A stretch of DNA of 32,000 bases from Thermosulfurimonas dismutans (GTDB lineage Bacteria > Desulfobacterota > Thermodesulfobacteria > Thermodesulfobacteriales > Thermodesulfobacteriaceae). Both the position numbers and the translations under genes were made by a program. The notes under the pieces were generated by a model. It saw only the letters and a program-made list of their open reading frames with translations. It was not told where the DNA came from and did no database searches. Where the stretch lies: NCBI RefSeq assembly GCF_001652585.1, contig NZ_LWLG01000005.1, positions 60,001 to 92,000 on the forward strand, read 5' to 3'. Below, one piece after another: positions 1,524 to 27,023 of this stretch. Positions within the stretch are counted from its first letter, which is position 1. Each line of letters begins with the position of its first letter.

Positions 1524-1527
1524 CCTT

Positions 1528-5355: not shown

Positions 5356-5396
5356 TTTTACACCTCCTATAATGAATTAGGTTATATCTCCTTCAT

Positions 5397-5441: not shown

Positions 5442-5501
5442 TAAGGTCCATTTCTTTCAAGGGTCGAACGAAGGCTCGACTGGAGACCAGAAAGAAAGGG
5501 G

Positions 5502-6794: not shown

Positions 6795-6819
6795 TCACCA
6801 ATCAGATTATTTTGTATTT

Positions 6820-11336: not shown

Positions 11337-13238
11337 TTATGGTCCTATCTCCGGAAGGAATTTTAATGTTTTGCTATCATAGCCAGAAACAGAAGTGAAG
11401 CTAAAATCGAGATAGAATCTATTTCGAGCGTCGCTTCTAACAAGAGAATTGTAAACCCCGGGATACATAATCTCGACTCCGTAAGGTTCTATAGCAACCC
11501 AAGTATTTACGGAACTCCAGAGTCCCATTCCTCCTTCATAAGCATCACAGGAAAATTCATAGTATCTACCACAATTTAGATTTACCTCATAAAAAAATCC
11601 CGGAGCATGGGCCATAAAATCCACCCCGAAGGAGCCGTTTTCGCTGGCCAACCGCGGATTTGATACGTAAACAAAGAAATCACCGCTTGCGTTTCGTGCG
11701 ATCTTGACCACGATGCCGTTTTGGTTGTAAAAAATCGGCACTGCACCCCAATCCGTAGCGTTTCCGTCTATCGCTATGTCAGCTTCTGGTATAACGTAGG
11801 TCTCAAGGGGCTCATCCCAGTCTATCATTTCCACTCCGGATCGGAAAAGCTCTATTCTAGTCCGATTGGCATAATCCATAAAAACATCTCCAAAAAGAAG
11901 AGCCCTAGGCGTGATTTGACCGCTTACAAGATCGTAAACCGTGGCGTTTCCGGTAGAAGTTGCGTATTCTAAATAAATATCGAATTTTCTTTTGGGGTAA
12001 TAGTAACCGTCGCCACCGTCCACATAATGCAGGGTCTCGTTGGCGGCTACGATCCAGGCCAATTCGGCTGAAGGATCACTGAAGGCGGTCTCAAGACTCG
12101 CAAGCACCCTTGTCGCGGCCTGGGCTATGACCACCGAGGCTGGATCATCCAGGTTAAAGGCATGGTTCTGTCTGGCCCTGAGCGCCTCTTCCGAAAGCGT
12201 CGCAAATTCGTTCACTATTTCCTCAAAAGTTTGTCTAGCCTGCGAAAAGGCCTGCTTGAATTCTTCAAGTTTGGACGGGTCTCTATAGGTTAGGAGTTGG
12301 GTATTGTTCATAAAAAATGTATATAGGGTTTCGTTGGAAGTTCCGTTAAAGGAAGTGCCATTCAGGGTTCCGTTTGCTACCAGAAGGAGATCCCTTATAT
12401 CCGTGCCGTTCACCAACCAGTTGTTAGCGCTTATATCCAGGGATTCGATATAAAGGCAGACGGCCTTCCAGAACTTAGCCAGAAATCGCATGATTTTAAC
12501 ATCCAGCGCATCAAAATACACCGTAGTCCCGTCGGGAAAGGTAAGACTGGCCAGATTACCAGCCGCCCGGGTTCCGGAAGCGGCAAGGACCTGCGAAAAC
12601 TCGGCATCGGCCTGATCCAGCCTGGAAATCACATCCACCATCACGGTAAGGATTTCTCCGGCATAGTCTGGAGCCGTGAGAAGATTATAGAGAATGTTAG
12701 CGGAAGAAGCATTGACGGTATCCAGGTCTACCTTGAGAACCTGGTTGAAGAAATCCCGATGATCGTTATACACCGTAAAAAGCAGGCCTGCTCCTTTCAG
12801 GATACGAGCCTCAGAGGTGTTCGGAACGGCATTAAACATATCCAGCAATTGTGTGTAATTTCCTTCCGAGGGATTTTCCAGGAAATCAATCAAGGCCTCC
12901 TTTAGATCTTCTACCGTTGCGGCATTCCAGCTTACGAGCTGAAGGGCCTTGCGCAGGATCACAAGCGCATCCCCGATGGTAATCTTCCCATCGGGATTCG
13001 GCATACCGTCCGCCCCGAGAGGGGCTACATCCGCATGACATGTATCCTCCTGGGTGGGCGCCTCAAGTCCTAAAGCAAAACGCAGAGTAACCAGGGCGTC
13101 ACCTATATTCACCTTTCCATCGCGATTCCCCAGCGGAGCCACGTCGCCGTCGGGCGTGCAGAGCGCCAATCCAATGGCCCCAAACATTCCCCACCAGGCG
13201 AAAAGGATCAAAAGGAACTTTACAAGCCATCCTTTCAT
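11337..13238 (-). CDS. Secreted 633-aa protein of unknown fold with the dockerin-like module at its N-terminus, directly after the signal peptide
   Basis: MKGWLVKFLLILFAWWGMFGAIGLAL-CTPDGDVAPLGNRDGKVNIGDALV... I recognise no motif in the remaining 530 aa. Confidence 0.85.
   Translation of the reverse strand: MKGWLVKFLLILFAWWGMFGAIGLALCTPDGDVAPLGNRDGKVNIGDALVTLRFALGLEAPTQEDTCHADVAPLGADGMPNPDGKITIGDALVILRKALQLVSWNAATVEDLKEALIDFLENPSEGNYTQLLDMFNAVPNTSEARILKGAGLLFTVYNDHRDFFNQVLKVDLDTVNASSANILYNLLTAPDYAGEILTVMVDVISRLDQADAEFSQVLAASGTRAAGNLASLTFPDGTTVYFDALDVKIMRFLAKFWKAVCLYIESLDISANNWLVNGTDIRDLLLVANGTLNGTSFNGTSNETLYTFFMNNTQLLTYRDPSKLEEFKQAFSQARQTFEEIVNEFATLSEEALRARQNHAFNLDDPASVVIAQAATRVLASLETAFSDPSAELAWIVAANETLHYVDGGDGYYYPKRKFDIYLEYATSTGNATVYDLVSGQITPRALLFGDVFMDYANRTRIELFRSGVEMIDWDEPLETYVIPEADIAIDGNATDWGAVPIFYNQNGIVVKIARNASGDFFVYVSNPRLASENGSFGVDFMAHAPGFFYEVNLNCGRYYEFSCDAYEGGMGLWSSVNTWVAIEPYGVEIMYPGVYNSLVRSDARNRFYLDFSFTSVSGYDSKTLKFLPEIGP
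12927..13160 (-). other. Dockerin-like module D5 (N-terminal position)
   Basis: CTPDGDVAPLGNRDGKVNIGDALVTLRFALGLEAPTQEDTCHADVAPLGADGMPNPDGKITIGDALVILRKALQLVSW. Confidence 0.75.
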
Positions 13239-13314: not shown

Positions 13315-13551
13315 TTACCAGTTGACAAGTCCCAGGGCCTTACGCAGGATCACCAGGGCGTCGCCGATGGTGATCCTTCCGTCCGGCTGCGGCGTGCCGT
13401 CCGGCCCGAGCGGGGCCGCGTCCGCATGGCACTTATCCTCCTCGCTCGGGGTCTCAAGCCCCAGGGCGAACCGCAAGGTCACCAAGGCGTCGCCTATGTT
13501 GACCTTCCCATCACGCGCCCCCAGCGGAGCCACATCGCCATCGGGCGTGCA
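13315..13551 (-). other. Dockerin-like module D6 (C-terminal)
   Basis: CTPDGDVAPLGARDGKVNIGDALVTLRFALGLETPSEEDKCHADAAPLGPDGTPQPDGRITIGDALVILRKALGLVNW. Confidence 0.75.
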
Positions 13552-15945
13552 CACCGGCACATATAGACTCTTAATCACGGGTAATCTGATAGCCAAATAC
13601 TGGTCTACTGGAGAAAAACCGTAATATTCTTGTACAAAATTCGCTTTCATATGAAAAAGAGCATATTTGTTTCTATCATAGCCAGAATAGCAAATCACAC
13701 CTTTCTGTAACTCATCTGTAAAATTAGCTACCTCGATATGAAAATTGGAATCTTCTGGAGGCGGAGGCAAATACCATTCCGCGGGATCACTCATTGCCTC
13801 CACGGAAATGTAAGGCAAGAAGGGGCGAAAATCAAAACATATCCTTTCTTGCCGGACTAGCATCTCCGGAATCACAGGAAAATTGTTTAATACTTGATAA
13901 AGCATAGATTCAGGAGAAAACTCCCAAGACCTAAGCCACGAAGAATAGATGACCGAGCCGCCGTTGTACTGGCTGAGATGTAGGAGATGCGAAGTTTCCG
14001 GCTCAAAAACTAATAAAAAATCCCTCCCGGCTTCTGAGAGCAGCGGAAGTCCACTTGTGGAATCCTTCACCTGGCGTACGAAGAGTCTGAGAGACTTAAG
14101 GCTTGTGCTTTTAAACTCTTTAAGACTGAACGGTTGCCCGCTCAACACCCTTAACTTCCCAGTGGGAAAGGCCGAACCATTTATGTAGACTAGTACGAAG
14201 TACTCGCCTGACCCATTCAGCTTAAATTCTAGATTTTCGGAATCCACTACTTTAAGCTCCGGGGGAGTAAAGATAGGAATGTCCTCCTCGGCCCACACCA
14301 AAATCTTTTGCCAAAGGTCGTCGTCCGTGACACCAAAAATTTCAGGAAAGACCTCCTCGTGCTTCCGATATGCCAAGGCCTTCCAGTATTCAACTATCTT
14401 TTCTTGTGGTGTATTTGCCCAAAAAATCGGAAAAACTACACTATTCATTGAAGAGGACATGACATAACACTCAGTGGTTGCTCCTCCACAACTGTACAAA
14501 AGTTCGTTCGATCTTAGATGAATAAAATTTTCCGGAATTTTGCCCGAGGTTATAGCTTCTCTGGCCGTAGCATGCCTGGAATTGCGCGAGTGACCATAGT
14601 AAGGATTCCGAGAGAAGGTTATCACCAGGCCTTCATGCCGCCACATAGGAATAATCTCATAGTCACTCCCTAGAGCCCGCGAAAGGTTTAACACATGATC
14701 AAAAGTGTGAGCAGATTCATGCGTAAATACATCCACAGCAGCTATGTGAGAAGAAAGGCCACCAATAATGTGCCAAAACACCGTTCCTTCTACATAAGTA
14801 GCAACGGTAACTTCATTGGAACACGCAAAAACATCTTCTTCTGGAATGTTTCCCGAAAGAAAACGACATAAATCTTGGGCAAATTCTATATCCGCTGAAT
14901 AGTAATAAACCGTTAGGGCCGGGCCCCAATCTTTTTCAAATCCCCAATAAGCGAAATAGCCCGTGTCTTTGGCCCGCTGAAGATATTTAAGGAGCCGTTC
15001 CGCATAGGGCCTTAGGAAAGCCTTGCTTTTCGGCCAGTAAACCACAAAGTTCTCGCTAAAGAGCTCGTCTACCTCCGTCCCAGTCGGCCCCACTACTACC
15101 ACCGACTCGAAACACTCACTACCGTCCCCTAAGCAGAGCTTCGGATAATATATTCCTGGATTCTCGTAACCGTAGTAGAAATCTGTCACGTCGGAGTTTG
15201 TCCTGTTCAAGATAAAGTCGAAGATTCCGTCGCCTTCCAGATCCAGCTTAAGGGCCGGGCAGGCTCCAAAACACCACACTTTGAAGCGCACCTTAGCCCC
15301 CTGAAGCACCACGCCCGGCTGAGGCTCAAACCTCTTTAAACGGAAGTTACCCTCTCTTACGAATCGCAAATAAGGCCTGGGAACCAAGCCTGTATTATCC
15401 ACCCCTCCATAAGGGTGGTCTTCTCCCCAATCCAGACGCCACAGCCAGCGGTCCTGAGAAACCATCCAGAAACTGTCTTTCGGCCAGACGGGAGCGTCCG
15501 CTATCACAGCCCTGCTGTAACCTTCGGCTTCTTGGAAATTGATCTTTAAATAAAAAAGTTTCTTTTGATTCGTTTTAGGAATAGGAACTCTGAGCCATCC
15601 AGGGCCTTGGGATAGCGCCTCGCCAATTTTCGTTTTCGACGTAATTTCATCGCCATTGACAGAAATCTCGTAGACCAAAAGTTTCGTCCCGGGAGCGTTC
15701 ACAAGAAGATCAATAGCTACCGTATCTTCGGGAGCCTCCACGACGATACCAGTGGTATCGCCCCATTCGGCAAGAGCAAAAGACCTTAAAGGAGGCAAAG
15801 AGGTAGTATAAAGTGGATAAAATACTTCTTGAGCGAAACCGGCTTGCCACAAAATAAACATATACAAGATAAACAACAAAATAAAAGTTGCCTTTTCATG
15901 ACAAACTTTAAGCAAGGAACGGCAACGGTCAATATCAACTTTCAT
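13315..15945 (-). CDS. Secreted HExxH zinc-metallopeptidase-like protein with C-terminal dockerin-like module; paralog B
   Basis: Colinear with the 856-aa protein over its full length. For example, QEVFYPLYTTSLPPLRSFALAEWGDTTGIVVEAPEDTVAI aligns with QEVFYPFYATSIPPLRSFALSEWGDTTGIVVEAPENTVAI. It retains HESAH...MWRHEGL. Confidence 0.85.
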   Translation of the reverse strand: MKVDIDRCRSLLKVCHEKATFILLFILYMFILWQAGFAQEVFYPLYTTSLPPLRSFALAEWGDTTGIVVEAPEDTVAIDLLVNAPGTKLLVYEISVNGDEITSKTKIGEALSQGPGWLRVPIPKTNQKKLFYLKINFQEAEGYSRAVIADAPVWPKDSFWMVSQDRWLWRLDWGEDHPYGGVDNTGLVPRPYLRFVREGNFRLKRFEPQPGVVLQGAKVRFKVWCFGACPALKLDLEGDGIFDFILNRTNSDVTDFYYGYENPGIYYPKLCLGDGSECFESVVVVGPTGTEVDELFSENFVVYWPKSKAFLRPYAERLLKYLQRAKDTGYFAYWGFEKDWGPALTVYYYSADIEFAQDLCRFLSGNIPEEDVFACSNEVTVATYVEGTVFWHIIGGLSSHIAAVDVFTHESAHTFDHVLNLSRALGSDYEIIPMWRHEGLVITFSRNPYYGHSRNSRHATAREAITSGKIPENFIHLRSNELLYSCGGATTECYVMSSSMNSVVFPIFWANTPQEKIVEYWKALAYRKHEEVFPEIFGVTDDDLWQKILVWAEEDIPIFTPPELKVVDSENLEFKLNGSGEYFVLVYINGSAFPTGKLRVLSGQPFSLKEFKSTSLKSLRLFVRQVKDSTSGLPLLSEAGRDFLLVFEPETSHLLHLSQYNGGSVIYSSWLRSWEFSPESMLYQVLNNFPVIPEMLVRQERICFDFRPFLPYISVEAMSDPAEWYLPPPPEDSNFHIEVANFTDELQKGVICYSGYDRNKYALFHMKANFVQEYYGFSPVDQYLAIRLPVIKSLYVPVCTPDGDVAPLGARDGKVNIGDALVTLRFALGLETPSEEDKCHADAAPLGPDGTPQPDGRITIGDALVILRKALGLVNW

Positions 15946-15991: not shown

Positions 15992-16357
15992 TCAATTACA
16001 TTCCGAAACGATCAAATGAGGCCGACAGCCTACCGAACGTCCGTCGAGATCAAAACAAGAAGAATGTACCTGAAAATCAGAAGCAGAAAGAACGCTGTCC
16101 CCTTCTCCCTTCAATCGAAAGACCATTTTCACCAGAGAAGCGCCGTTGGACGGAAGCCCCGAGGCGTTCATTACGCCCACCTTCACCTTCCGCCCCAGAT
16201 CGTTGAATCCCAACATGGTCTGCGGATAATCTCCCGCCAGGCGCACTCCAAATCCAGCGTCAAACTCTACTCTATCCTGGGGATACTCCACACTCAAATC
16301 CACGCCCCCAATGAAGGCCTCACTTTCCACCCCCACTTCCACGGTACACCGGAGCAC
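15992..16357 (-). other. Cohesin-like module (class B, Cys-capped)
   Basis: LRCTVEVGVESEAFIGGVDLSVEYPQDRVEFDAGFGVRLAG...GRKVKVGVMNASGLPSNGASLVKMVFRLKGEG...CRPHLIVSECN. The pattern x-IGG-(V/I)-D/S-(hydrophobic alternation)-Y-P...V..G....G.V.(I/V)G......G......LV...F is shared with classical cohesin strands. Confidence 0.55.
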
Positions 16358-16810
16358 CTTAGGAGAAACTCCCTCTCGGGCCTCCTCCGCCTCAAATTCC
16401 TCCGCATTGCCTTCTTCCATCGAATTCCCCCTTTCTTCCGGGATAGATGATCGCAAAGAAGACGAAGAGTTCCGCCCTTCTTCTCCAGCCCACCGGGTTT
16501 CGGATGCAGATGCAGAAACACCCCCTTCTGAAACCGCGCCTTTCCCCCAAGAACTTTCCCCTGCGGAGTTTTCCCCCCAGGACCGTTTATTTCCATAGGC
16601 ATCCACATAATAGACCCCACCACGGGATTTCGCGGCCTCTTTCCTTCCGAAACTTTGCCTTGCCATCGCCGGCCCCCCAGCTCTCCTGGAGGAAAAATCA
16701 CCGGACGTACTCTGTTTCCCTGAAGCCCCTTCCTCCCCAGCCGGAGGGCCGCCTCCACAGGCTACCAGGATTAACAACAACGCGAGATAAAAAGGTAATA
16801 TCTTCTTCAT
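15992..16810 (-). CDS. Lipoprotein with a low-complexity G/S/E/R linker and a C-terminal cohesin-like module (candidate anchoring cohesin)
   Basis: I prefer ATG 16810 (MKKILPFYLALLLILVAC, lipobox L-V-A-C, GGGGG SD 6 nt upstream) to the track's TTG at 16822. This ATG overlaps the stop of the upstream 1567-aa gene as ATGA. Confidence 0.8.
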   Translation of the reverse strand: MKKILPFYLALLLILVACGGGPPAGEEGASGKQSTSGDFSSRRAGGPAMARQSFGRKEAAKSRGGVYYVDAYGNKRSWGENSAGESSWGKGAVSEGGVSASASETRWAGEEGRNSSSSLRSSIPEERGNSMEEGNAEEFEAEEAREGVSPKVLRCTVEVGVESEAFIGGVDLSVEYPQDRVEFDAGFGVRLAGDYPQTMLGFNDLGRKVKVGVMNASGLPSNGASLVKMVFRLKGEGDSVLSASDFQVHSSCFDLDGRSVGCRPHLIVSECN

Positions 16811-17052
16811 TGATACCCCCAACTTACCAATCCTAAAGCCTTACGCAGAATCACCAGGGCATCTCCGATGGTGATCTTTCCGTCGGGATTCGGCCTTCCG
16901 TCCGCGCCAAGCGGAGCCACGTCCGCATGACACCGGTCCTCCTCCGTCGGCGTCTCAAGCCCGAGGGCAAACCGTAGGGTTACCAGGGCATCGCCAATGT
17001 TCACCCACCCGTCACGGTTACCCAGCGGGGCCACATCGCCGTCGGGGGTACA
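16807..17052 (-). other. Dockerin-like module D7 (C-terminus of the scaffoldin-like protein)
   Basis: CTPDGDVAPLGNRDGWVNIGDALVTLRFALGLETPTEEDRCHADVAPLGADGRPNPDGKITIGDALVILRKALGLVSWGYQ. Confidence 0.75.
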
Positions 17053-20000
17053 GCTTATCACATTGACCCGACAGGTCCCATTTTCCACCTTTATTGGCAC
17101 CGCCGTGCCGGTCAAATCGTAACCCTGGATCGAAGAGATATTTATCGTCACCTCCCCTGTCACATCCAAACCGGGCTCCAAAGTAACTTTTAAAACCTCT
17201 CCCTTTCCGGAAAAACCGCTAGCCTTAATCAGCCCCACCCGATAACTACCAAGATTGCTATTGTTGGTCTGCACCGTAGCCCCTTGTGCCAGACCTACGG
17301 CCGTAACCCCCTTTGCACTTAAACCCGCATCAAAACCCAGGCTTAGATCCAACCCGCCTAGGGTAAGGTTTTTGGTGTCTATCTCGAACACTATGTCAAA
17401 CATCTTCCTCGCATTTACTTCTTTTGAACAAATCATAGTTACTTCTATAGGATTCGTATCCACATAAACCTTGGCTCCTAGTCCACAACCGGAAAAAGTA
17501 TTACCTTCGAGATTGGCAAATTCTACCTGTGGAATCTCCAGATCAACCACCGTTTGAGCTACGGATATAGGATTCACCCGGAAAATCAGACGCAAGATTT
17601 CGCCCGAACCCGAAATACCGGTAGCCGAGATAATTCCAATCCTTACCACACTTCCATTGTCGTAGGGAGTAATAAGTCCACCCTGAAGGATTCTTGCACC
17701 TTCTACTCGATCAAAACTCAACACCGCAGGATTATATGTAACGGTAAAACTTATTCCTCCGATGGTAGTCGAAGTTCCATTCAGGATCACAGGAACAACT
17801 ACTTCAGATCCAGGGTGTCCATAAACGTTTTGAAGTATCAGAGTATCCACACCATTTTCACAGGAAGGAGATTGGGGACTAGCATGACAGCTACCGTTAT
17901 ACCAGTAACCACCTGCCCTTACGCAATCCGCTTCCGTAGTGCACAGATTCAAGTGTTGAGCATCACAACTCGGTTCTTGATTAGTTGTCGCAACCTCAAT
18001 CACTAAAGGATTTGAAATTGCCGTAGCACCTTTATCATCTTTGGCCACACAACGCGCTTTATAAGTTCCAGCCTTGTCATAGATATGGGTAACTCTTCCA
18101 TCATAATCGGTCACATTATTCCCGTCTCCGAACTGAAAGGTATATTCCACTATGCGACCGTCGGGGTCGTGAGCTGTGCAGACAAACTCTACAGACAATG
18201 GCGCCTCTACAGAAGTCGGATTAGCGCTAAATAAGTCTATCACCGGCGGCTGATTCTGTGTTTGGATAGGCTCAAACCGCGCCGTGCAACTCTTCGAGTC
18301 ATCCATCACCAGAGGACATATTCTATCGTTCCCGCATTCCGCACAATCACCTTCCCAGCCGGCAAAACTATATCCCTCATCAGGTATAGCTTTAAGCGTT
18401 ACCTTTGTCCCACTATCATAATCTGTATAACACTCCCCTCCACAATCTATCTTCCCGCCTCCACCCTCTACACTAACACTAAGCCGATACCTATCTCTCT
18501 CAAAGATCACCTCTATTATGTGGTTGTCTTTAACGTCTCTAAACGGGTAACTCGTCATCGCACCCTTCGAGACCCCATCTACCACTACATCCTTAACATG
18601 ATACCCCTTGTCAGGCTCTATCGTAAAAATCTGGCTTCCACCACACTCCACAGTTACATTCCCAGAAGGACTTATACTCCCACCAACTCCTGCCTTGGCC
18701 TCTATCGTGTACTCATTTAACCCAAAATTCACCACCACACTACAATTGCCTGTCACCTGTCCCGTCGTAAAAATGTTCCCACTTAATGTCCCACCACACG
18801 TGCTATCCACTCCCTCCACGTGATAACACGCATCAGGTGTCACCGTAAATCTTGCCACGCCCCCATGCGTAACCTTCTGACTCAATGGCTCTACCGTTCC
18901 CTTCCCATTTCCTACTCTCGCCGTTACCATATACTTCTTAAGCTCAAACTGCGCCGAGCAACTTTTCGCACCATCCATCACCACAGAACAGGTGGCGTTG
19001 CTACCACATCCCGCACAGTCTCCTCCCCAACCAGTGAAGATTGAATCAATATTCGGAAAAGCAGTAAGCCTTACAGTTATTCCTCTGTCGAAACTAGCAC
19101 TACAAGTACTTCCGCAGTTTATGCCAGAAGGTGAACTTGTTATTGTTCCGGAGCCAGTCCTGCTTACACTCAGGGTATATCTTGTAACTTGGGGGATTGC
19201 TAAAGCTGTGCTTCCACCGGATACATTGCCTGCGTTATCTATTGCACACAGTCTGTAGTAATATGTTCTACCATTTGTTAAACCGGTATGCGTATACGAT
19301 GTTGCTATTGGTGAAGATAGAGTCAATCTTGTTCCCGAAGTGCATCCTGAGCTAGGATAACCGGATGTGCTATAGACCAACTTAAACTCTTTTAAACCAC
19401 TTCTACTATCACTTACAGACGACCAACTCAGAGTAACACGAGCATCCCCTCCAGTAGCGGTAAGAGATGGATTTGAAGGTGGGGTCGTGTCTAAGATTAT
19501 ACAATCATGATACCAGCTAGAAATATTACCTTCAGAATCTCTAAATTTAACATACACACATTTGTTTCCATCTCCACTAGGTAAACTCCACATTTTCGTA
19601 TTAGAAAAATTTTTCCAATCATATGGATAACAGGTTGTTTGTGAATTTTTAATACACACTTGTATCTGATCAATAGGTGTATAGTCATCGTAAACATTAA
19701 GGTTCAACACAACTGAAGTCGATTTTGTATACAGTGCACCATTTTCTATTAAAATACTTCCTGTAGGTGGCTTTGTTACTATCTTAAAAGAGTAGCTATT
19801 AACCTCCCATCCTTGTTGGTCTATAGTAGTACTATTTTGAGGATAATTTTTATAATGACACCAAAAATCGTCAACACTAGTCATTGTAGATCTTACATAA
19901 AACTTAAAGTTACCTGGAGATAATTTGGAAGTATCAACAAGTAAAGTCACCGTTTTTGTTGTTCCCGATTTCCATTGTCCTCCAAATTCAATCATAGGAT

Positions 20001-21510
20001 ACCTAGCAGTCATTGAATTACAACTACTATTGTAAATTGTATCTCCAGGGAGTTTTTTATATACATTTAGTCCTCCACTGTTTTGAATAGAAATTGCGGA
20101 AAGATCCTTTAGATAAGGAAATGAAATAGTTATAGAGCCATAAATTGCGTCACTACCCTTATTATTCGCATTTATATTAATTTTAACTAAATTTCCTTTT
20201 ATTACAGAAGTAGGGTATGTAATATTAGTAATTATTGGCCTTGGAGGATTTCCAAAAATCAAATTTTCAAATTTGTATTCATTTAAAAACTGAACTACTT
20301 CAGCATCAGATAAATGTAAATCTTCATTACATAGTACTTTAGAACTTTCCCAATAAATTTGAGCTAACACTGAAGGATTTCTTTTTAAAATCTTAGAAGT
20401 TATATAAATATATTCTGGAAAAAGCTTTTCCCGATCCCAAAAAAAAATTCCTCCAATATAACTACCGTTACCATATATTATATCTTTTACACCACTCCAA
20501 TCACAATATGAATTATATGCCAAATTGCAATCATATCTATCAAGAAGAACTAAATATTCATGCATATTTTTGCCAACATTATCGAAAAGACTTGACAACG
20601 ATTTTCTCCACAATCTATACGAAGTATTGTGTAGTTGATTTACCAATTCCCACAAAGAATTATATAAATGTACTAATTTTGCCAAATAAAATGCCGCGTC
20701 TGTTTGACACATAAAGGCCTGAGCATAAGAAATTGCAAATTTCATAAGTATAGGCATATTTTGATTCATAATAGCCGTAGCTGAATTTAAAGCATCAACA
20801 ACATCCCAAGCAGTTGCTAATACGGGACTAAAGACTGCTATAGAATCCGGTAAAATATTGAGATACTGTTTCCAAATTATTTCTCCTGCTACTGCAGCTA
20901 CATTTTTAGAAAGATTAGTTAATTTTCTATCTATAATAGTCTTTATTGCTGCAATTTGACTACCTATATCATGATGTATGTAAAGCAACGCATAAATTAT
21001 TCTATTTTGAGGACTTTTTTCATTTTTTATAACATAGAATACTTCCCAATAAATTATCTTTTCTTTCGTTATCAATTTACGATACTTATATTCTATTGTA
21101 ATTATTAAATACAACTTCTTAGGCAGATCTACAACAGAAAATGACAAAATTTGTGAAAAATTTATAAAAAATTTATTAGCTTCTGAAGCTGAATAAGACA
21201 ATCTAGGAATTATATCTCTACCGTTTTTATCTTTTATATAAAAGTAAACTGTGCCACTTTCAGGGGGAATTATTTTATAAAATCTTTTTAAAGAATTACC
21301 GTTATATATAACCAATCCATTAGACTCTACAGGATAAACATAACTACTAATAGATAAAGACGATGGCTCATATAAGTATGATATCAATGTCCAGGGTTCT
21401 ATTGGAGATTGTAAAGTTATAGAAAAAGCAGTACTAATTATTACATTCAAAACGAAAAAACTTAAAACAACTATTTTAGAAAAACTACATATCTTTAAAC
21501 TTTTTATCAT
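16807..21510 (-). CDS. 1567-aa scaffoldin-like surface protein: signal peptide, AT-rich-encoded N-terminal region, Fn3, four InlB-B-repeat-like beta modules, PKD, two tandem cohesin-like modules, C-terminal dockerin-like module
   Basis: Signal peptide MIKSLKICSFSKIVVLSFFVLNVIISTAFS. Fn3: PPSNPSLTATGGDARVTLSWSSVSD...GRTYYYRLCAIDNAGNVS. The repeats are of the type YTLSVSRTGSGTITSSPSGINCGSTCSASF...FTGWGGDCAGCG...CSVVMDGAKSCSAQFE. PKD: FQFGDGNNVTDYDGRVTHIYDKAGTYKARCVAKDDKG. Confidence 0.9.
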   Translation of the reverse strand: MIKSLKICSFSKIVVLSFFVLNVIISTAFSITLQSPIEPWTLISYLYEPSSLSISSYVYPVESNGLVIYNGNSLKRFYKIIPPESGTVYFYIKDKNGRDIIPRLSYSASEANKFFINFSQILSFSVVDLPKKLYLIITIEYKYRKLITKEKIIYWEVFYVIKNEKSPQNRIIYALLYIHHDIGSQIAAIKTIIDRKLTNLSKNVAAVAGEIIWKQYLNILPDSIAVFSPVLATAWDVVDALNSATAIMNQNMPILMKFAISYAQAFMCQTDAAFYLAKLVHLYNSLWELVNQLHNTSYRLWRKSLSSLFDNVGKNMHEYLVLLDRYDCNLAYNSYCDWSGVKDIIYGNGSYIGGIFFWDREKLFPEYIYITSKILKRNPSVLAQIYWESSKVLCNEDLHLSDAEVVQFLNEYKFENLIFGNPPRPIITNITYPTSVIKGNLVKININANNKGSDAIYGSITISFPYLKDLSAISIQNSGGLNVYKKLPGDTIYNSSCNSMTARYPMIEFGGQWKSGTTKTVTLLVDTSKLSPGNFKFYVRSTMTSVDDFWCHYKNYPQNSTTIDQQGWEVNSYSFKIVTKPPTGSILIENGALYTKSTSVVLNLNVYDDYTPIDQIQVCIKNSQTTCYPYDWKNFSNTKMWSLPSGDGNKCVYVKFRDSEGNISSWYHDCIILDTTPPSNPSLTATGGDARVTLSWSSVSDSRSGLKEFKLVYSTSGYPSSGCTSGTRLTLSSPIATSYTHTGLTNGRTYYYRLCAIDNAGNVSGGSTALAIPQVTRYTLSVSRTGSGTITSSPSGINCGSTCSASFDRGITVRLTAFPNIDSIFTGWGGDCAGCGSNATCSVVMDGAKSCSAQFELKKYMVTARVGNGKGTVEPLSQKVTHGGVARFTVTPDACYHVEGVDSTCGGTLSGNIFTTGQVTGNCSVVVNFGLNEYTIEAKAGVGGSISPSGNVTVECGGSQIFTIEPDKGYHVKDVVVDGVSKGAMTSYPFRDVKDNHIIEVIFERDRYRLSVSVEGGGGKIDCGGECYTDYDSGTKVTLKAIPDEGYSFAGWEGDCAECGNDRICPLVMDDSKSCTARFEPIQTQNQPPVIDLFSANPTSVEAPLSVEFVCTAHDPDGRIVEYTFQFGDGNNVTDYDGRVTHIYDKAGTYKARCVAKDDKGATAISNPLVIEVATTNQEPSCDAQHLNLCTTEADCVRAGGYWYNGSCHASPQSPSCENGVDTLILQNVYGHPGSEVVVPVILNGTSTTIGGISFTVTYNPAVLSFDRVEGARILQGGLITPYDNGSVVRIGIISATGISGSGEILRLIFRVNPISVAQTVVDLEIPQVEFANLEGNTFSGCGLGAKVYVDTNPIEVTMICSKEVNARKMFDIVFEIDTKNLTLGGLDLSLGFDAGLSAKGVTAVGLAQGATVQTNNSNLGSYRVGLIKASGFSGKGEVLKVTLEPGLDVTGEVTINISSIQGYDLTGTAVPIKVENGTCRVNVISCTPDGDVAPLGNRDGWVNIGDALVTLRFALGLETPTEEDRCHADVAPLGADGRPNPDGKITIGDALVILRKALGLVSWGYQ
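17053..17450 (-). other. Cohesin-like module 2 of the scaffoldin (class A)
   Basis: MFDIVFEIDTKNLTLGGLDLSLGFDAGLSAKGVTAVGLAQGATVQTNNSNLGSYRVGLIKASGFSGKGEVLKVTLEPG... Confidence 0.6.
17461..17851 (-). other. Cohesin-like module 1 of the scaffoldin (class A)
   Basis: VDTLILQNVYGHPGSEVVVPVILNGTSTTIGGISFTVTYNPAVLSFDRVEGARILQGGLITPYDNGSVVRIGIISATGISGSGEILRLIFRVNP. This is the closest of the modules to the classical cohesin pattern (G..V.VPV....., I.g.dF.v.Yd..vL....v..g, G.i.i......, G.I..i.F.V). Confidence 0.7.
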
Positions 21511-21546: not shown

Positions 21547-21762
21547 CTATTCACACCCTAGCACCGTCAGTCTTGCCCTACACCTAACTGCATGGCCGTC
21601 GAGGTCGAAGTAGGTGGCGGAAGCACCGAAATCGTTTGCGGTAAGGGTGGTTCTGCCTTCGTCTTTCACCACAAAGGCCAGGTGCACCAGCGGAGAGCCA
21701 TTAGCGGGATGACCCGGAGCGTTCATAAGTCCTACCTCGCAGTAGAACTTTTGGCCCCCCAA
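21547..21762 (-). pseudogene. Truncated cohesin-like remnant: only the C-terminal half of a class-B cohesin, with no native start
   Basis: The translated sequence ...EVGLMNAPGHPANGSPLVHLAFVVKDEGRTTLTANDFGASATYFDLDGHAVRCRARLTVLGCE aligns with the last ~65 aa of the 276-aa lipoprotein (KVGVMNASGLPSNGASLVKMVFRLKGEG...FDLDGRSVGCRPHLIVSECN). The frame begins immediately after a terminator hairpin, at a forced TTG. Confidence 0.6.
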
Positions 21763-21789
21763 AATAGCGGGGGGCTTTGCGCCCCCCGC
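21759..21789 (-). terminator. Rho-independent terminator of the 923-aa gene
   Basis: On the minus strand the sequence reads GCGGGGGGC-gcaaa-GCCCCCCGC followed by TATTTTGG. The 9-bp all-G/C stem (21767-21775 / 21781-21789) begins 9 nt after the stop at 21798. Confidence 0.75.
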
Positions 21790-21797
21790 CGATTAGA

Positions 21798-22175
21798 TTA
21801 CTGACAGGTAAATTCCACTATCTGTGCCGGACAAGCAAAAGTATTCCCGGAAAGATCCGAACAGGTAGCATTACCATCAGGAATAATTGCAAGCTCGCTC
21901 TCCTGAGGCTCACTACACAATCCCTGATTCTGAGGAGTTGAGAAGGTAAGCTTAAGCACCGCTGAGCCGTCCGCAGGAAATCCACCGGCTGAAATGAGCC
22001 CAATCTTCACATGGGTTCCATTATCATTGGGAACCACCAGTCCTCCCTGAGCCGCTCCAATAGCTACCACATTATCAAATCCAAGCGCAGTCTCTGGATA
22101 GTCCACGGTCACATCCACTCCTCCAATCGTACCATTGGCCGTAACCCCGAGCTTCAGTGTGCAGGTGTAAGCCTT
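21798..22175 (-). other. Cohesin-like module (class B, Cys-capped)
   Basis: KAYTCTLKLGVTANGTIGGVDVTVDYPETALGFDNVVAIGAAQGGLVVPNDNGTHVKIGLISAGGFPADGSAVLKLTFS...ACPAQIVEFTCQ. Confidence 0.55.
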
Positions 22176-24569
22176 GGGCTGAGTCACCCCGACCGAGGTC
22201 TGGCCGGACACACCATCCACCGTCACCCGCACCGTGGAATTCTGACTGCCGGCGGTAAGCGTCACCGCAGCCACCCCTACCTTATCTACATCGTTCCAGC
22301 CGATGGGAATGCTCACCTGGCTCAACACTCCATCACCCTGAGTCACCTCAAAAGCCGCATCTCCTATGGCATCCTTGTTAGTGCAGGAATCGAAATCAGC
22401 AAGGTGAATGGTGGCCTTGATGGTGGAGTTGCCCCCGGCGCACACGGTAGCAGGCTCGGCCCGCACATCAATTCCCGTAACCGTGCACGGATCCTGAGCC
22501 ACCTGAATGGCAACCTCGTTGGAAGTTTTGCCCTCAGAGGTGGCCTTCACCTTGACCTCACCCGGAGCGTTAACCGTGAGCGTGGTGCTAGCCTTACCGG
22601 TGGCATCGGTCTGAGCCGTAGGCGGATTCACGTACCCATCACCGCTCACTACCTCAAAGGTCACCTCTTTGCCCGAAAGATCGCCGCACTGCTCGGCATT
22701 AACCACCTGCACCTGAGCCATAAGTTGTGTGCTGTCTCCGGCCGTAAGAGAGGTTTTATTGGCGCTAAGCGTCACCCCCGTAACCGTACACGGATGTTCC
22801 GCCACCTGAATAGTAACCTCGTTGGAAGTCTTGCCCTCAGAGGTGGCCTTCACCTTGATCTCCCCCGGAGCATTGGCCGTAAGGGTGGTGCTGGCATTAC
22901 CACTAGCATCCGTCACCGTCGTGGCCGGGTTCACCGTCCCATCTCCGCTCACCACCTCAAAGGTCACCTGCTTTCCGGAAAGATCAGCACAGATATCCGG
23001 ATTGACTACTTCTACTTGGGCCGTGAGATTGGCACTCTCGCCCGCCACGACCGAAATAGGGGTGGCGTTAAGGCTTACCGCCTTAACCGCACACGGATCA
23101 GGGGCCACGTAAGACATAGCAACCCTACGATGTATTCCAGTGCAGGGATCCTCCACCAAAGCTACTAATTTAGCCATACCGGCTCCCTGAACTTCCAGTG
23201 GCGCTACCGCATATCCATCAGTATCAATATCTACTTCTATCTCCTTCTTTCCACCTGTGAAAGTAACCTGGCCTTTCACAATCTTAAATGTCACCTTTCC
23301 GGAAGGAGTGCCATTTCCGGAAAGCGGAGCTACCATGGCTTTCACTTTCCATTGATTAGTAGTTTGATCAAAATATATCCCAGCCATTGAAATCTCATCC
23401 ACACTATCAGCATTGCAAACCTTAATCAGCACGGGATTGGAGGTCCGGTTATCACTAGTTACAGCCGTAATCCTGAACACACTTCCCGCCGGAGCACTTC
23501 CGGCACATACTTGAGCGGAAGCTTCAGTAAGCGTATTACCCTGAACAGGATTGGGATTTATAGCAAGGGTGCCATTGGTGGCATTCCCTACAGGCATAGC
23601 GTCAAAAGCAATCTCACTTATCTGAGGCCCCTCTCCACATCCTATTACACCCGCGATTTTTGCCGTAAGTTTGCTACACACCTGTCCATCGGAAGAAATA
23701 ATTATCCTATCTCCCGAAAGACCTACAGCATAAGAACAATAATTCTGAAGTGTAGAGCCGATCTGATCCAAAATATTTGTATAATTACCTGAAATGGGGT
23801 TTCCGTTTACTTGCCCATCCATAACACCATCTTGGAGGTCCTGAAGAAGAGCTACAAACCCCTGCAACAACTTCTCCCACAGTGAAAGGAAATCCGTCTG
23901 AATCTGAAGGAGACGGCTTATGGCATCCGCCAGAACTCTATTATAAGGCGGCTCGTAATCCCTTATGCTAAAATGGTGCTCCGTAAAAAGTTTTTTGATA
24001 TATTCTTCTCTTTCGCTACCGAATTCCTCTCGAGCCCGTTCTCGGACGTGGTACACCAGTGTCCTTACGGGCTCAAATTCCGGATCGTTTTCAATTTGCG
24101 TAAAATTGTCACTATGTTTTTCCACTAGAGCACTGGTATCCACAGTAAGAAAGGCATAATATAGGGCACCTGAAATAATATCTGCCCCTTTGTGAACTAC
24201 ATTTCCATCTTCGTCCATAATAAACCCTTGGAGAGGAGGAGCCGCCAGAGTATCATTTCCGACCTGCATGGTACCGTTCTCACTCTTCAATGTAAGCCGA
24301 GTACAATTAGCTACCTCCACAGGATTTAGCTTGAACTGAAAATTTCCCTCCCCATCCGTTTGTCCGAGCTTCTTCAATTTCTTTCCGTCACACAGGAGCC
24401 ACACAGTAGCGTTAGCCACCGGGTCCTTACTCACACTTCCAACGACCGTGGCTCCAGAGGTGGTACCGGAAGTCTCCTCTCCGCCACCACCTCCACCACC
24501 TCCACAGGCCACAAGCAGCAAAGGAAGCACAAATACCCATAACCACAAACCCAACCTTCTCCAACTCAT
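21798..24569 (-). CDS. 923-aa lipoprotein with poly-Gly linker, helical/unknown region, three Big_1-like Ig domains and a C-terminal cohesin-like module (candidate anchoring scaffoldin)
   Basis: MSWRRLGLWLWVFVLPLLLVACGGGGGGGGEE carries the lipobox L-V-A-C. Ig-like repeats are of the type LSGKQVTFEVVSGDGTVNPATTVTDASGNASTTLTANAPGEIKVKATSEGKTSNEVTIQV. SD GAAGGGGG lies upstream of the ATG. Confidence 0.9.
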   Translation of the reverse strand: MSWRRLGLWLWVFVLPLLLVACGGGGGGGGEETSGTTSGATVVGSVSKDPVANATVWLLCDGKKLKKLGQTDGEGNFQFKLNPVEVANCTRLTLKSENGTMQVGNDTLAAPPLQGFIMDEDGNVVHKGADIISGALYYAFLTVDTSALVEKHSDNFTQIENDPEFEPVRTLVYHVRERAREEFGSEREEYIKKLFTEHHFSIRDYEPPYNRVLADAISRLLQIQTDFLSLWEKLLQGFVALLQDLQDGVMDGQVNGNPISGNYTNILDQIGSTLQNYCSYAVGLSGDRIIISSDGQVCSKLTAKIAGVIGCGEGPQISEIAFDAMPVGNATNGTLAINPNPVQGNTLTEASAQVCAGSAPAGSVFRITAVTSDNRTSNPVLIKVCNADSVDEISMAGIYFDQTTNQWKVKAMVAPLSGNGTPSGKVTFKIVKGQVTFTGGKKEIEVDIDTDGYAVAPLEVQGAGMAKLVALVEDPCTGIHRRVAMSYVAPDPCAVKAVSLNATPISVVAGESANLTAQVEVVNPDICADLSGKQVTFEVVSGDGTVNPATTVTDASGNASTTLTANAPGEIKVKATSEGKTSNEVTIQVAEHPCTVTGVTLSANKTSLTAGDSTQLMAQVQVVNAEQCGDLSGKEVTFEVVSGDGYVNPPTAQTDATGKASTTLTVNAPGEVKVKATSEGKTSNEVAIQVAQDPCTVTGIDVRAEPATVCAGGNSTIKATIHLADFDSCTNKDAIGDAAFEVTQGDGVLSQVSIPIGWNDVDKVGVAAVTLTAGSQNSTVRVTVDGVSGQTSVGVTQPKAYTCTLKLGVTANGTIGGVDVTVDYPETALGFDNVVAIGAAQGGLVVPNDNGTHVKIGLISAGGFPADGSAVLKLTFSTPQNQGLCSEPQESELAIIPDGNATCSDLSGNTFACPAQIVEFTCQ
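22500..23105 (-). repeat. Tandem 303-bp (101-codon) coding repeat, two copies, with a third more diverged copy at about 22197-22499
   Basis: CACCTGAAT(G/A)G(C/T)AACCTCGTTGGAAGT(T/C)TTGCCCTCAGAGGTGGCCTTCACCTTGA starts at both 22500 and 22803. Each unit encodes one Big_1-like Ig domain. Confidence 0.85.
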
Positions 24570-24671: not shown

Positions 24672-24905
24672 TCATGAAACCAATCCCAGGGCCATGCGCA
24701 GGATCACCAGGGCGTCGCCGATGGTGATCTTGCCATCCGGCTGGGGTGTTCCGTCCGCCGCAAGCGGGGCCACATCCGCGTGGCATTTGTCTTCCTCCGA
24801 AGGTGTCTCAAGCCCCAAGGCAAACCGCAGGGTCACCAGAGCGTCACCGATATTCACCTTTCCGTCCCGGGCACCCAGCGGGGCCACGTCCCCGTCCGGC
24901 GTGCA
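24672..24905 (-). other. Dockerin-like module D8 (C-terminal)
   Basis: CTPDGDVAPLGARDGKVNIGDALVTLRFALGLETPSEEDKCHADVAPLAADGTPQPDGKITIGDALVILRMALGLVS. Confidence 0.75.
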
Positions 24906-27023
24906 GAGAGGAGGAACGGGCACGGTGAAGTTCCACCGCTCGGACTGAACCGCCCCACCCTTCCCATCCGAAGCCTCCACATACCAGTAATAAGTAGTTC
25001 CATTCTCAAGATCGGCGATGGTGCAGGTGGTCTGCGTTATACCTATACATCCCACAACTGGATGAAAACTCTCCTCCCCCTGTCTGGCAAGAAAAACGGT
25101 ATATCTTACGGTGTCGTTTTCACTATCCAAAGAAGCCTGCCAGGAAAGGGTTACCGGGGCCGGGGTCTCACTTCCGGACTCAGGTGATATTAATGCCGGT
25201 GCGGAAGGGGGAGTATTGTCCTCAAAGGAGATCACTCCACCGTCGGTGGCGGCATACCACCGAGAGCCTATCTTCACCAGGTCGTAAAGAGTGTAGAGAT
25301 CATTTATAAAATATTGAAATCTCGTCCAGGTCTTTCCCCCGTCTTTGGACTGGTAAAGGCCGTTGTCGGTGCGAGCGAAAAATCGAGAAGGATCTTCAGG
25401 ATCAGGATATACCTTGTACACCTCCTGCACCCCAGCAAGACTTACTTTCTGAAAAGAACCAGTGTCCTGGTAATATATATAAAGACCATTTCGGGTGGAA
25501 ACGAAGGCCTTACCGGAGAAGAGCTGAATATCGTTTATATCCTTTATTCCGGTGTCTCGCCAGGTGCTACCGTTGTCGGAGGAAACAAAAAGATGTTTTT
25601 CATAATTCACACTGCTTACGGCATAAATTGTTCCCCGTTCCATGTCATAAGCCACCTCACTTACACTTCCGTCCGTTGGCCCGGATATGAACCCCCAAGT
25701 CTCCCCTCCGTCAGTGCTCATATAAATGCCATATCCCTGCCCCCCATCCCAGGAAGAAAGGTAACCCGCAACCCATATCTCAAGAGGATGATTTTTAGGA
25801 TCCGGAAAATAATAGTCGTAAAGGGAGCCTTTCCATATCACCGAACAGTTATCGAAATCGAGAGAACACCGACTGAAATGGGTGTACTCCGTCTCGTAAT
25901 AAGCGTAATCTCCCACCACGGTAAAAGTTTTGAAATCCTCATAAGGCCTTGCGGGTTCTTTAAAAAGTTCCCACCTTTTTTTCTTAAACGAGTACTTATA
26001 AATTCCCTTTCTATCAATATCAATTGTAGCCCAAAGGTCGCCAGAGGAATCCTTTTCTAAAAATTTAAGACTATATCCGGTGGCCACTCCATACTTTTGC
26101 CATGTATTTCCGCCATCGGTGGAAATTTCGAGATAGCCGTTCCTTCCGAGCCAGATAGTCTCTCCCCGTACCGCCACGGAATAAACCGCCTCCGGGGCGA
26201 TAAAGCTCCAGGTTTGGCCCTGATCGTCCGAACGATAAAGACCTCCACTGGTGGCCAGCCAGATATGCCCCTGGGAATCAATAACCGCATCGTTTACATA
26301 ATCCGAAAGACCGAGCTCCCGAAAACTTCCCCCGGTGTCCGTAGAGATGTAGCCCTTTCCCCCACCTATTACCAGAACTGGATTTCCGTTTCTCGCGGCG
26401 GAGATTTTTATTCCATCATACCAATCCTTGGGAAGCCCGGTTCCCACCTTCTCCCAGGAGAGCCCTCCGTCATCGGAACGATATAAACCCTCAGCTTCTA
26501 TATAAACATAAACTCGGTTATCATAGAAAGGAGAAAACCAAATATTTGAATAGTAATTTGAAATATTTAACACCTTTAAAAAATTTTTCCCTTCATCTTG
26601 TGAAAAATAAATTGCATCTCCTTCCAACCCAACTAAAATTTGAGATCCTTGAGCCTGAATGTCATAAATGTTTCCTTTAAATGTAAAAAGATCATACCAA
26701 TTTCGACCTCCATCTCCAGAAATCATTAAAATGCCATAATTACTACTATATAACCGATAAGGATCCTCCTGATCTACGGCAAGCGGAAGTCTTGTGGAGA
26801 CCCGCACAAAATGGCGACCGCCGTCGCGGCTCTGGTAAAGTACACCACCACAAATCACGTAAAGGAACGTACCGTTGGAGGATTCCGGAAGCAGGATTTC
26901 TACCCGGCCACAGGAGGTAACGACCAGGTCCTCACTTGGTCCCAGATGCTCCACCCCTTCCACCATTGCCATAAGAGGCGTAGACCAAATAAACAAGAGA
27001 AGGAAAGTCAAAAACATCCTCAA
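24672..27023 (-). CDS. Secreted BNR/Asp-box repeat beta-propeller protein with Fn3 domain and C-terminal dockerin-like module
   Basis: Signal peptide MRMFLTFLLLFIWSTPLMA. There are ten S-x-D-x-G-x-(T/S/N)-(W/F) Asp-boxes: SRDGGRHF, SGDGGRNW, SQDEGKNF, SDDGGLSW, STDTGGSF, SDDQGQTW, STDGGNTW, STDGGETW, SSDNGSTW, SKDGGKTW. Fn3: PAPVTLSWQASLDSENDTVRYTVF...GTTYYWYVEASDGKG. Confidence 0.9.
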   Translation of the reverse strand: MRMFLTFLLLFIWSTPLMAMVEGVEHLGPSEDLVVTSCGRVEILLPESSNGTFLYVICGGVLYQSRDGGRHFVRVSTRLPLAVDQEDPYRLYSSNYGILMISGDGGRNWYDLFTFKGNIYDIQAQGSQILVGLEGDAIYFSQDEGKNFLKVLNISNYYSNIWFSPFYDNRVYVYIEAEGLYRSDDGGLSWEKVGTGLPKDWYDGIKISAARNGNPVLVIGGGKGYISTDTGGSFRELGLSDYVNDAVIDSQGHIWLATSGGLYRSDDQGQTWSFIAPEAVYSVAVRGETIWLGRNGYLEISTDGGNTWQKYGVATGYSLKFLEKDSSGDLWATIDIDRKGIYKYSFKKKRWELFKEPARPYEDFKTFTVVGDYAYYETEYTHFSRCSLDFDNCSVIWKGSLYDYYFPDPKNHPLEIWVAGYLSSWDGGQGYGIYMSTDGGETWGFISGPTDGSVSEVAYDMERGTIYAVSSVNYEKHLFVSSDNGSTWRDTGIKDINDIQLFSGKAFVSTRNGLYIYYQDTGSFQKVSLAGVQEVYKVYPDPEDPSRFFARTDNGLYQSKDGGKTWTRFQYFINDLYTLYDLVKIGSRWYAATDGGVISFEDNTPPSAPALISPESGSETPAPVTLSWQASLDSENDTVRYTVFLARQGEESFHPVVGCIGITQTTCTIADLENGTTYYWYVEASDGKGGAVQSERWNFTVPVPPLCTPDGDVAPLGARDGKVNIGDALVTLRFALGLETPSEEDKCHADVAPLAADGTPQPDGKITIGDALVILRMALGLVS

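Follow-up and report, generated by a model that had tools for sequence, protein, structure and literature searches.

We studied a stretch of 32,000 nucleotides (nt) of the Thermosulfurimonas dismutans genome (contig NZ_LWLG01000005.1, positions 60,001 to 92,000 of the forward strand; the window hereafter), in which the gene for a scaffoldin-like giant protein, sca1567, overlaps the gene for a small cohesin-bearing lipoprotein, lipo272. T. dismutans, a diderm thermophile from a deep-sea vent, fixes CO2 and disproportionates sulfur; its genomic G+C content is 50.1% (PMC4911364), and the word "dockerin" is absent from that paper. The overlapping pair forms part of a ten-gene cluster (1528-27023) with every gene on the minus strand. 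A six-frame scan of the window with our own cohesin and dockerin profiles located exactly eight dockerins and four cohesins within these 25.5 kb, besides one cohesin relic. The four cohesins, which would serve as sockets, are found on sca1567 (two), on lipo272 (one) and on a second lipoprotein, lipo923 (one), and all eight dockerin proteins have signal-peptide-like starts. The overlapping pair has the following features (lengths in amino acids, aa):

16807..21510, minus strand: sca1567, a 1567-aa exported scaffoldin-like protein with an ATG start (WP_153303772.1 / OAQ20917.1, publicly named "InlB B-repeat-containing protein")
19560..21420, minus strand: orphan N-terminal region of sca1567, ~650 aa
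19225..19482, minus strand: fn3 of sca1567, aa 677-762 (Pfam PF00041, 31.7 bits)
18259..19212, minus strand: four InlB-B-repeat-like (Flg_new_2) modules of sca1567, aa ~767-1084 (PF18998, E 6.8e-32, three stretches)
18004..18255, minus strand: PKD of sca1567, aa 1086-1169 (Pfam PF18911 and PF00801)
17458..17850, minus strand: first cohesin of sca1567 (Coh1), aa ~1221-1351 (Pfam Cohesin and our own profile A1)
17068..17448, minus strand: second cohesin of sca1567 (Coh2), aa ~1355-1481 (BLAST homology to Coh1 and to the lipo923 cohesin)
16819..17052, minus strand: dockerin of sca1567, aa 1487-1564 (Pfam Dockerin_1, AlphaFold2 (AF2) and Foldseek)
16807..16810, minus strand: ATGA stop/start overlap of sca1567 and lipo272, with a GGGGG Shine-Dalgarno-like run at 16816-16820
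15992..16810, minus strand: lipo272, a 272-aa lipoprotein with signal peptide and lipobox, tether and C-terminal cohesin
16757-16810, minus strand: signal peptide and lipobox of lipo272, Cys18
16361-16756, minus strand: disordered Gly/Ser/Glu-rich tether of lipo272, aa 19-150 (~130 aa)
15995-16360, minus strand: cohesin of lipo272, aa 151-272

From its N terminus, sca1567 consists of a signal peptide, the orphan region, fn3, the four InlB-B-repeat-like modules, PKD, Coh1, Coh2 and the dockerin. A preliminary description of this DNA, made from the letters alone, had read the 1567-aa frame as ending in cohesin-cohesin-dockerin, and a domain scan with the Pfam hidden Markov models, BLAST homology, and profile and fold matches bear this out. 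Its inventory of the remaining part (Fn3, four InlB-B-repeat-like modules, PKD, an N-terminal orphan of ~650 aa and no carbohydrate-binding module, CBM) likewise agrees with our Pfam scan, which returned no CBM in sca1567, and with internal BLAST comparisons. The latter revealed the fourth Flg_new_2-like module and show that the modules form two related pairs (m1 with m4, E 1e-16 to 1e-20; m2 with m3, E 3e-7).

Coh1 matches the Pfam Cohesin family directly (PF00963, aa 1224-1313, 33.3 bits with a cut-off of 24.1); no direct match to this family was obtained for Coh2 or for the cohesins of lipo272 and lipo923. Coh1, Coh2 and the C termini of the two lipoproteins are nevertheless mutually homologous (BLAST E 1e-5 to 1e-19). 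Coh2 aligns with Coh1 (E 2.5e-5 to 7e-8) and with the lipo923 cohesin (E 4e-7 to 5e-10), which is in turn the nearest relative of Coh1 (48% identity over 63 aa in BLAST). A profile of the four modules, compared with the PDB, returned a non-cellulosomal cohesin from Archaeoglobus fulgidus (PDB ID 2XDH, E 2.9e-10), with other cohesins next; 2XDH is also the best PDB sequence match of Coh2, at an E value (0.19) that is not significant alone. An exhaustive profile search of 1.84 billion representatives yielded 620 matches at E ≤ 1e-3. Of the ten nearest foreign matches that we scanned, eight score strongly as Pfam Cohesin proteins; many of these bear several cohesins, and a dockerin is present in some. 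When the four-cohesin profile was used in a word-indexed search for homologues, nothing was returned.

The AF2 model of the whole of lipo272 contains a signal helix, a segment of low confidence (aa 26-150, predicted local distance difference test score (pLDDT) <50) and a β domain (aa 151-272, pLDDT 85-93). When this model was compared with the PDB by Foldseek, the top 15 matches were all cohesins, in keeping with the jelly-roll β-sandwich of this family. The best fold match is 2JH2 (target-normalised TM-score 0.64), and type II cohesins from Bacteroides cellulosolvens and ScaB Coh6 from Acetivibrio cellulolyticus are also found. UniRef names the 142-aa version of lipo272 a "Cohesin domain-containing protein". 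The earlier view of lipo272 as a lipobox protein with a cohesin as its sole confidently folded part is thus consistent with its lipobox, its AF2 model and the Foldseek matches. The preliminary description had also considered that the cohesin-like segments might fold as unrelated Ig/Big domains; this does not hold for lipo272 and Coh1, and Coh2 is assigned as a cohesin by homology only.

The dockerin of sca1567 is built from two repeats, each of the form DVAP...DG-x-(V/I)-x-IGDALVxLRxALGL. Taken alone it scores 23.1 bits against Pfam Dockerin_1 (PF00404, cut-off 22.9), a family that 25 of 28 dockerin family members match, and NCBI labels its relatives "dockerin type I repeat-containing". In an AF2 model of Coh2 together with the dockerin, the dockerin part has a pLDDT of 79-94 and forms two long helices and a connecting one (fragment positions 160-170, 178-184 and 203-213). 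Its top Foldseek match is the ScaB dockerin of A. cellulolyticus (4UYP_B; target-normalised TM-score 0.67, r.m.s.d. 2.9 Å, probability 0.99, but E 0.13). Dockerins also rank top when a dockerin profile is compared with the PDB, at non-significant E values of 0.2-0.7, and a single-sequence PDB search with the dockerin returned noise only. We aligned the dockerin to 4DH2_B and compared it with the canonical calcium loop of 12 residues, D-x-[ND]-x-D-G-x-[VI]-x-x-x-D: in both repeats, loop positions 3, 5, 9 and 12 are N, D, N/T and D, respectively. In all eight dockerins of the cluster, each repeat begins with a Cys (C-x-P-D-G-D... and C-H-A-D...; for example in 16819-17052, minus strand). Such a Cys start is found in only 13 of 106 metagenome members of the dockerin family, and the Cys pair may staple the two repeats together by a disulfide.

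The minus-strand junction of the two genes reads ...TGG GGG TAT CAA TGA AGA AG, and the TGA of sca1567 (16809-16807) shares bases with the ATG of lipo272 (16810-16808). The ATGA overlap reported earlier can thus be read directly from the sequence. It is kept in L001, a contig of a different sample with 96% nucleotide identity, which retains the dockerin end, the overlap and the full 272-aa frame. A spacing of 5 nt separates the GGGGG Shine-Dalgarno-like run, which lies inside sca1567, from the lipo272 ATG, and similar runs precede sca1567, lipo923 and the cargo gene g633. A stop/start overlap with the downstream ribosome-binding run inside the upstream gene is the arrangement of a translationally coupled pair.

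Counted from this ATG, lipo272 has 272 aa, and 276 aa result from the mechanical open reading frame (ORF) that starts at TTG 16822. Its N terminus reads MKKILPFYLALLLILVAC followed by GGG, with a canonical L-V-A-C lipobox (...LLILVAC followed by GGG). As a criterion we used [LVI][ASTVI][GAS]C at the end of the signal peptide, and this motif is present in both lipo272 and lipo923. GenBank and RefSeq instead start the protein at M131 (142 aa; OAQ20915.1 / WP_153303771.1), by which signal peptide, lipobox, tether and ATGA overlap are lost and the link to a lipoprotein becomes invisible in databases. In the comparison with L001, third codon positions account for 10 of the 14 differences in codons 1-133 (p=0.004) and for 18 of 30 in the whole gene (p=0.002); this pattern indicates coding constraint on the N-terminal part of lipo272. 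The 272-aa start is better supported than the 142-aa one because of the lipobox, the Shine-Dalgarno-like run, the conservation in L001 and the excess of third-position differences. We reject the M131 start, with which the cohesin would have no export signal and which disregards the codon-position evidence. A start of the lipoprotein gene at the ATGA, as first proposed, and not elsewhere, is thus favored over the annotated one.

Are the dockerins of scaffoldin and cargo of one type or of two? The eight dockerins share 72-93% protein identity and 69-82% nucleotide identity. As the nucleotide identity is the lower of the two, the dockerins are kept alike by selection on the protein, and we reject recent gene conversion as the source of their likeness. 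Mean identity to the other seven is highest for the sca1567 dockerin (86.6%, range 79-92%), whose nearest relative is the dockerin of g633 (92%). It is unique at two aligned positions only, W16 and R53, besides a three-residue tail, GYQ, which it has because the Shine-Dalgarno-like run and the start codon of the lipo272 gene lie there; the initial impression of a close likeness to the cargo dockerins, with very few differing positions, was correct. W16 corresponds to position 7 of the first calcium loop in the 4DH2_B alignment, where 11 different residues (K, I, T, V, Q and others) occur among 89 family members (standard length 78 aa), and R53 corresponds to "position 1" of the second loop, which is likewise variable. 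The IGDALVxLRxALGL helix motifs are invariant in both repeats of all eight dockerins. In classical type I dockerins, the internal symmetry of the two helix motifs underlies dual binding.

Adaptor scaffoldins carry a dockerin of a specificity type other than that of the enzymes. Judged from its sequence, sca1567 does not, and we find no support for a separate "type II-like" dockerin on it. Eight near-identical dockerins argue against a strict adaptor/anchor hierarchy of the type I/type II kind and favor the promiscuous, daisy-chaining option, which the preliminary description had called no more than conceivable. The adaptor-plus-anchor logic of the preliminary description holds insofar as the genes for a scaffoldin and for lipobox anchors are present and SLH and sortase anchoring are absent; a strict multi-tier division appears disfavored by the near-identity of the dockerins.

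The second lipoprotein and the cohesin relic lie directly upstream of sca1567:

21798..24569, minus strand: lipo923 (TDIS_1045), second lipoprotein with Big_1/PKD Ig-like repeats and a C-terminal cohesin
21801-22187, minus strand: cohesin of lipo923, aa ~795-923
21553..21783, minus strand: relic of a third lipoprotein-type cohesin, C-terminal half only, without start codon

The N terminus of lipo923 reads MSWRRLGLWLWVFVLPLLLVAC followed by GGGG (lipobox ...PLLLVAC followed by GGGG). Like the relic and the seven other dockerin genes, lipo923 is context that the preliminary description did not cover. The relic sits in the 287-bp gap between lipo923 and sca1567 and shares 44% identity with aa 193-271 of lipo272 (E 8e-17 against the window's own proteins, E 2e-9 with our own cohesin profile). 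A G+C-rich hairpin (21787-21770) follows lipo923 at the upstream edge of the relic.

Seven further genes of the cluster encode dockerin-bearing proteins:

24672..27023, minus strand: g783, BNR/sortilin-type β-propeller, fn3 and C-terminal dockerin (24678-24905)
13315..15945, minus strand: g876, 876 aa, HExxH motif and C-terminal dockerin (13324-13551), paralogue of g856
11337..13238, minus strand: g633, 633 aa, dockerin (12933-13160) directly after the signal peptide
9384..10868, minus strand: g494, 494 aa, CAP/SCP domain and C-terminal dockerin (9393-9617), 100% identical to a T. dismutans CAP-domain protein
6820..9390, minus strand: g856, 856 aa, HExxH motif and C-terminal dockerin (6829-7056)
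5502..6794, minus strand: g430 (TDIS_1036), Kazal-like segment, internal dockerin (6225-6452) and GH114 (Pfam GH114, E 3.7e-90)
1528..5355, minus strand: g1275, 1275 aa, β-propeller-like repeats, PKD and C-terminal dockerin (1537-1764)

The HExxH motifs of g856 and g876 are HELAH and HESAH, respectively. Neither protein matched a Pfam or NCBIfam family, and the two may represent a new metalloprotease-like family. In g430, the Kazal-like segment is Cys-rich and the dockerin precedes the catalytic domain; GenBank places its start 102 aa later (328 aa). Some members of the GH114 family cleave polygalactosamine-type exopolysaccharides. The cargo set as a whole suggests envelope and matrix remodeling and adhesion rather than the degradation of nutrient polymers.

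The genes of the cluster are closely spaced, with two overlaps (-4 and -7 nt) and remaining gaps of 25, 46, 76, 102, 146, 287 and 468 bp. Promoter and terminator scans gave background levels only, and Pfam scans of the cluster proteins found no SLH or LPXTG matches; lipoboxes are present instead. The orphan N-terminal region of sca1567 matches no Pfam family and has no homologue detectable in a word-indexed search. Its DNA has a G+C content of 28-31%, compared with 46-58% in the flanks and 50.1% in the genome. Its 650-codon frame would stay open by chance with a probability of ~6e-26 and is certainly coding; the segment looks like a foreign or mosaic piece fused to the Fn3-to-dockerin part of the protein. 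Directly adjoining the cluster is the sole long plus-strand ORF (27384-28262, 292 aa), which reads like a transposase or integrase. This flanking ORF and the patchy G+C content (28-58%) suggest a mobile or recently rearranged island. Genomic-context look-ups by the exact sequences of sca1567, lipo272 and the CAP protein returned no match.

Relatives of the modules are widespread. The dockerin family occurs in hundreds of metagenome proteins from Thermodesulfobacteriota, 65-92% identical and fused to β-helix, PKD, peptidase, SGNH, nuclease and other domains. In at least 14 of the 148 best cohesin matches, a dockerin accompanies two or more cohesins. Besides the T. dismutans proteins, just two to three of these 148 are lipoprotein-like, and P0212 and P0261 are lipobox cohesin proteins. 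P0212 combines a lipobox and a CarboxypepD_reg-like N terminus, as in lipo923, with two C-terminal cohesins. Its gene lies on metagenome contig L003, 5 bp downstream of a gene for a protein that ends in a dockerin of the same family, and by its layout is an independent recurrence of a dockerin gene followed by a lipoprotein-cohesin gene. In this region of L003 (JGI 3300045918, 6920-10281), the upstream gene encodes a 637-aa Lcl_C/Flg_new_2 protein with a hybrid C-terminal dockerin. The first repeat is canonical (DLNGDGGIDIRD), whereas the second belongs to the "DVAP...PDG" type, and the hybrid bridges classical dockerins and the T. dismutans-type family.

A genome scan with cohesin alignment A3 matched Desulfothermus okinawensis only, T. 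dismutans itself not being among the matches, and two metagenome scans returned no relatives. In D. okinawensis (BBBM01000036.1, 7038-10366), a g633 homologue, apparently without dockerin, adjoins an ORF for a Cys-rich cohesin (P0130); this draft contig looks frameshifted around the region. Contig L005 (JGI 3300031645, 347-7618) encodes 254-aa signal-peptide-cohesin-dockerin proteins twice. Each of these small genes adjoins a gene for a giant secreted protein (1373-1805 aa), a recurring layout of a giant protein and a small cohesin protein.

Taken together, our findings make it probable, if well short of certain, that the locus encodes a non-cellulosomal cohesin-dockerin assembly system tethered to the membrane by lipoproteins. 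The two lipoproteins would be acylated at their lipobox Cys, and each would hold one C-terminal cohesin off the membrane, lipo272 by its disordered tether of ~130 aa and lipo923 by a ~770-aa stalk of Ig-like domains. Under E. coli-type lipoprotein sorting, a Gly at position +2 would direct a lipoprotein to the outer membrane. Eight Sec-exported proteins with one 78-aa calcium-type dockerin each would plug into the cohesins. A docked sca1567 would offer two further cohesins, so that each anchor site would turn into two, and into more if scaffoldins dock on each other. As all eight dockerins are essentially of one type, the resulting network most likely branches promiscuously and lacks a strict division into two tiers. 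The ATGA overlap would allow scaffoldin and lipo272 to be made from one mRNA, probably in coupled amounts, and a likely role of the system is the envelope display of matrix-remodeling and adhesion proteins. We further put forward, tentatively and as a doubtful extension, that a single-specificity code generates a self-branching, lipid-tethered lattice on the envelope, which displays proteases, a GH114 matrix glycosidase and adhesin-like propellers. Were this true, the "DVAP" dockerin would mark a phylum-wide modular system for surface display or matrix building that has nothing to do with breaking down polysaccharides, and the lipoprotein-cohesin would represent an anchoring class not recognized before.

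Several observations weigh against the tethered assembly system. Position 1 of both calcium loops is Leu or Arg in place of Asp, and an insertion of 4-9 residues ("VAPLG...") separates the upstream Asp, found in DVAP, from position 3; the calcium dependence of the dockerin is assumed. In the AF2 model of Coh2 and the dockerin, the Coh2 part has a pLDDT <50, a failure that we attribute to the poor alignment built for Coh2, and no sign of docking between the two modules within the chain could be read from this model. An orthologous cluster was not found in other genomes or metagenomes, so that the conservation of the cluster is that of one near-identical strain and of analogous loci. Finally, the host is a diderm (PMC4911364), in which the lipoproteins could be periplasmic and are not necessarily surface-exposed.

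A strict two-tier hierarchy is the best of the competing explanations, although we consider it unlikely. Here the cargo dockerins would bind Coh1 and Coh2 only, the scaffoldin dockerin would bind only the lipoprotein cohesins, and the ATGA overlap of the sca1567 and lipo272 genes would set a fixed ratio. The cohesins do fall into two subtypes, as four conserved Cys are common to the lipoprotein cohesins and P0130 of D. okinawensis but missing from the scaffoldin cohesins. This Cys-rich subtype would permit the cohesins to differ in specificity and in this respect counts against a uniform network. W16, R53 and the GYQ tail of the sca1567 dockerin could also be read as marks of a separate specificity. 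Yet none of the eight is more central than this dockerin, which is nearly the same as that of g633, and both of its unique residues are at positions that vary across the family. The helix positions known for recognition in characterized type I dockerins are invariant in all eight, and known adaptor scaffoldins bear a clearly different dockerin type.

We regard as improbable that the scaffoldin mainly binds itself, either as an auto-inhibited monomer or as a homopolymeric fiber or matrix, with the lipoproteins as nucleation points only. Its dockerin is of the cargo type, each chain has two cohesins, and proteins with both cohesins and a dockerin of this family are frequent among the relatives (13 of the 148 top cohesin matches), in addition to small cohesin-dockerin proteins such as P0052, P0075 and P0022. 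The sequence has nothing, however, that separates self-binding from cargo binding, and self-binding leaves the seven co-clustered dockerin proteins without a clear partner beyond the two lipoprotein cohesins. The least probable explanation is that the modules are structural or calcium-binding decorations of unrelated exported proteins that form no complex, and that the overlap is ordinary operon packing: the marginal Pfam score of the dockerin, the lack of a Pfam match for three of four cohesins and the ATGA, the commonest bacterial gene junction, would fit it, but twelve modules of two complementary families are packed into 25 kb, strong purifying selection keeps the eight dockerins alike, the pairing of a dockerin gene with a lipoprotein-cohesin gene recurs independently in L003, and the fold matches indicate bona fide cohesins and a dockerin.

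Cohesins and dockerins are best understood in cellulosomes, yet many non-cellulolytic bacteria and archaea carry them as well. With four cohesins, eight dockerins and a defined cargo, the T. dismutans locus offers a test case that is compact, complete and culturable, in which hierarchical versus promiscuous assembly, the site of assembly and the nature of what is displayed become testable. The isolate grows at 65 °C, and a thermostable 78-aa dockerin of one specificity with matching cohesins would serve as a protein-assembly tool.

The nearest solved relative by profile, 2XDH, comes from A. fulgidus, whose AF2375/AF2376 system is likewise found in a thermophilic, non-cellulolytic organism and includes one protein with both cohesin and dockerin. 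This archaeal system reportedly has one cohesin and few partners, and no lipoprotein anchor is said to have been described for it, whereas a single T. dismutans cluster encodes four cohesins and eight dockerins, with two lipoproteins as anchors. Cohesin-dockerin pairs also link non-cellulolytic secreted enzymes in the toxin and glycosidase complexes of Clostridium perfringens (2JH2, 2VO8, 2W1N), which include the best fold match of lipo272. Unlike T. dismutans, C. perfringens is a Gram-positive pathogen with the modules on the enzymes themselves, and it has no dedicated scaffoldin or lipoprotein anchor.

Non-cellulosomal cohesin/dockerin "adhesins" occur in anaerobic methanotrophic (ANME) archaea and syntrophic sulfate-reducing bacteria, marine and hydrothermal anaerobes that include Thermodesulfobacteriota-related lineages (PMC9012536, PMC10553843). 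These surveys report, as domain inventories, scaffoldin-like proteins with a dockerin and up to five cohesins and link the systems to a matrix polysaccharide (pel) and to adhesion (PMC9012536, PMC10553843). The same matrix and adhesion role is proposed there, and the T. dismutans cluster holds a GH114 glycosidase. T. dismutans is in contrast a free-living isolate, and its lipoprotein anchor, overlapped scaffoldin/anchor pair and dockerin uniformity are not described in the passages of these surveys that we consulted (PMC9012536, PMC10553843). In the searchable literature, we found no description of a native lipoprotein-anchored cohesin.

With cellulosomal scaffoldins (A. cellulolyticus ScaA/ScaB/ScaC; C. 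thermocellum CipA and SdbA/OlpB), the T. dismutans system shares a multi-cohesin scaffoldin that bears a dockerin, in fold closest to that of ScaB (4UYP_B), and a separate cell-bound cohesin protein. It differs from them by the absence of a CBM, of cellulases and of any plant-cell-wall hydrolase among its cargo (CAP, GH114, HExxH and propeller proteins and g633), and its scaffoldin dockerin is of the cargo type, whereas cellulosomal adaptors use a distinct one. Proteins that combine several cohesins with a dockerin are already known, as are non-cellulosomal systems in general. Unlike cellulosome producers, the host is a diderm chemolithoautotroph (PMC4911364), and anchoring by a lipobox, in place of SLH domains or sortase, is suited to a diderm envelope.

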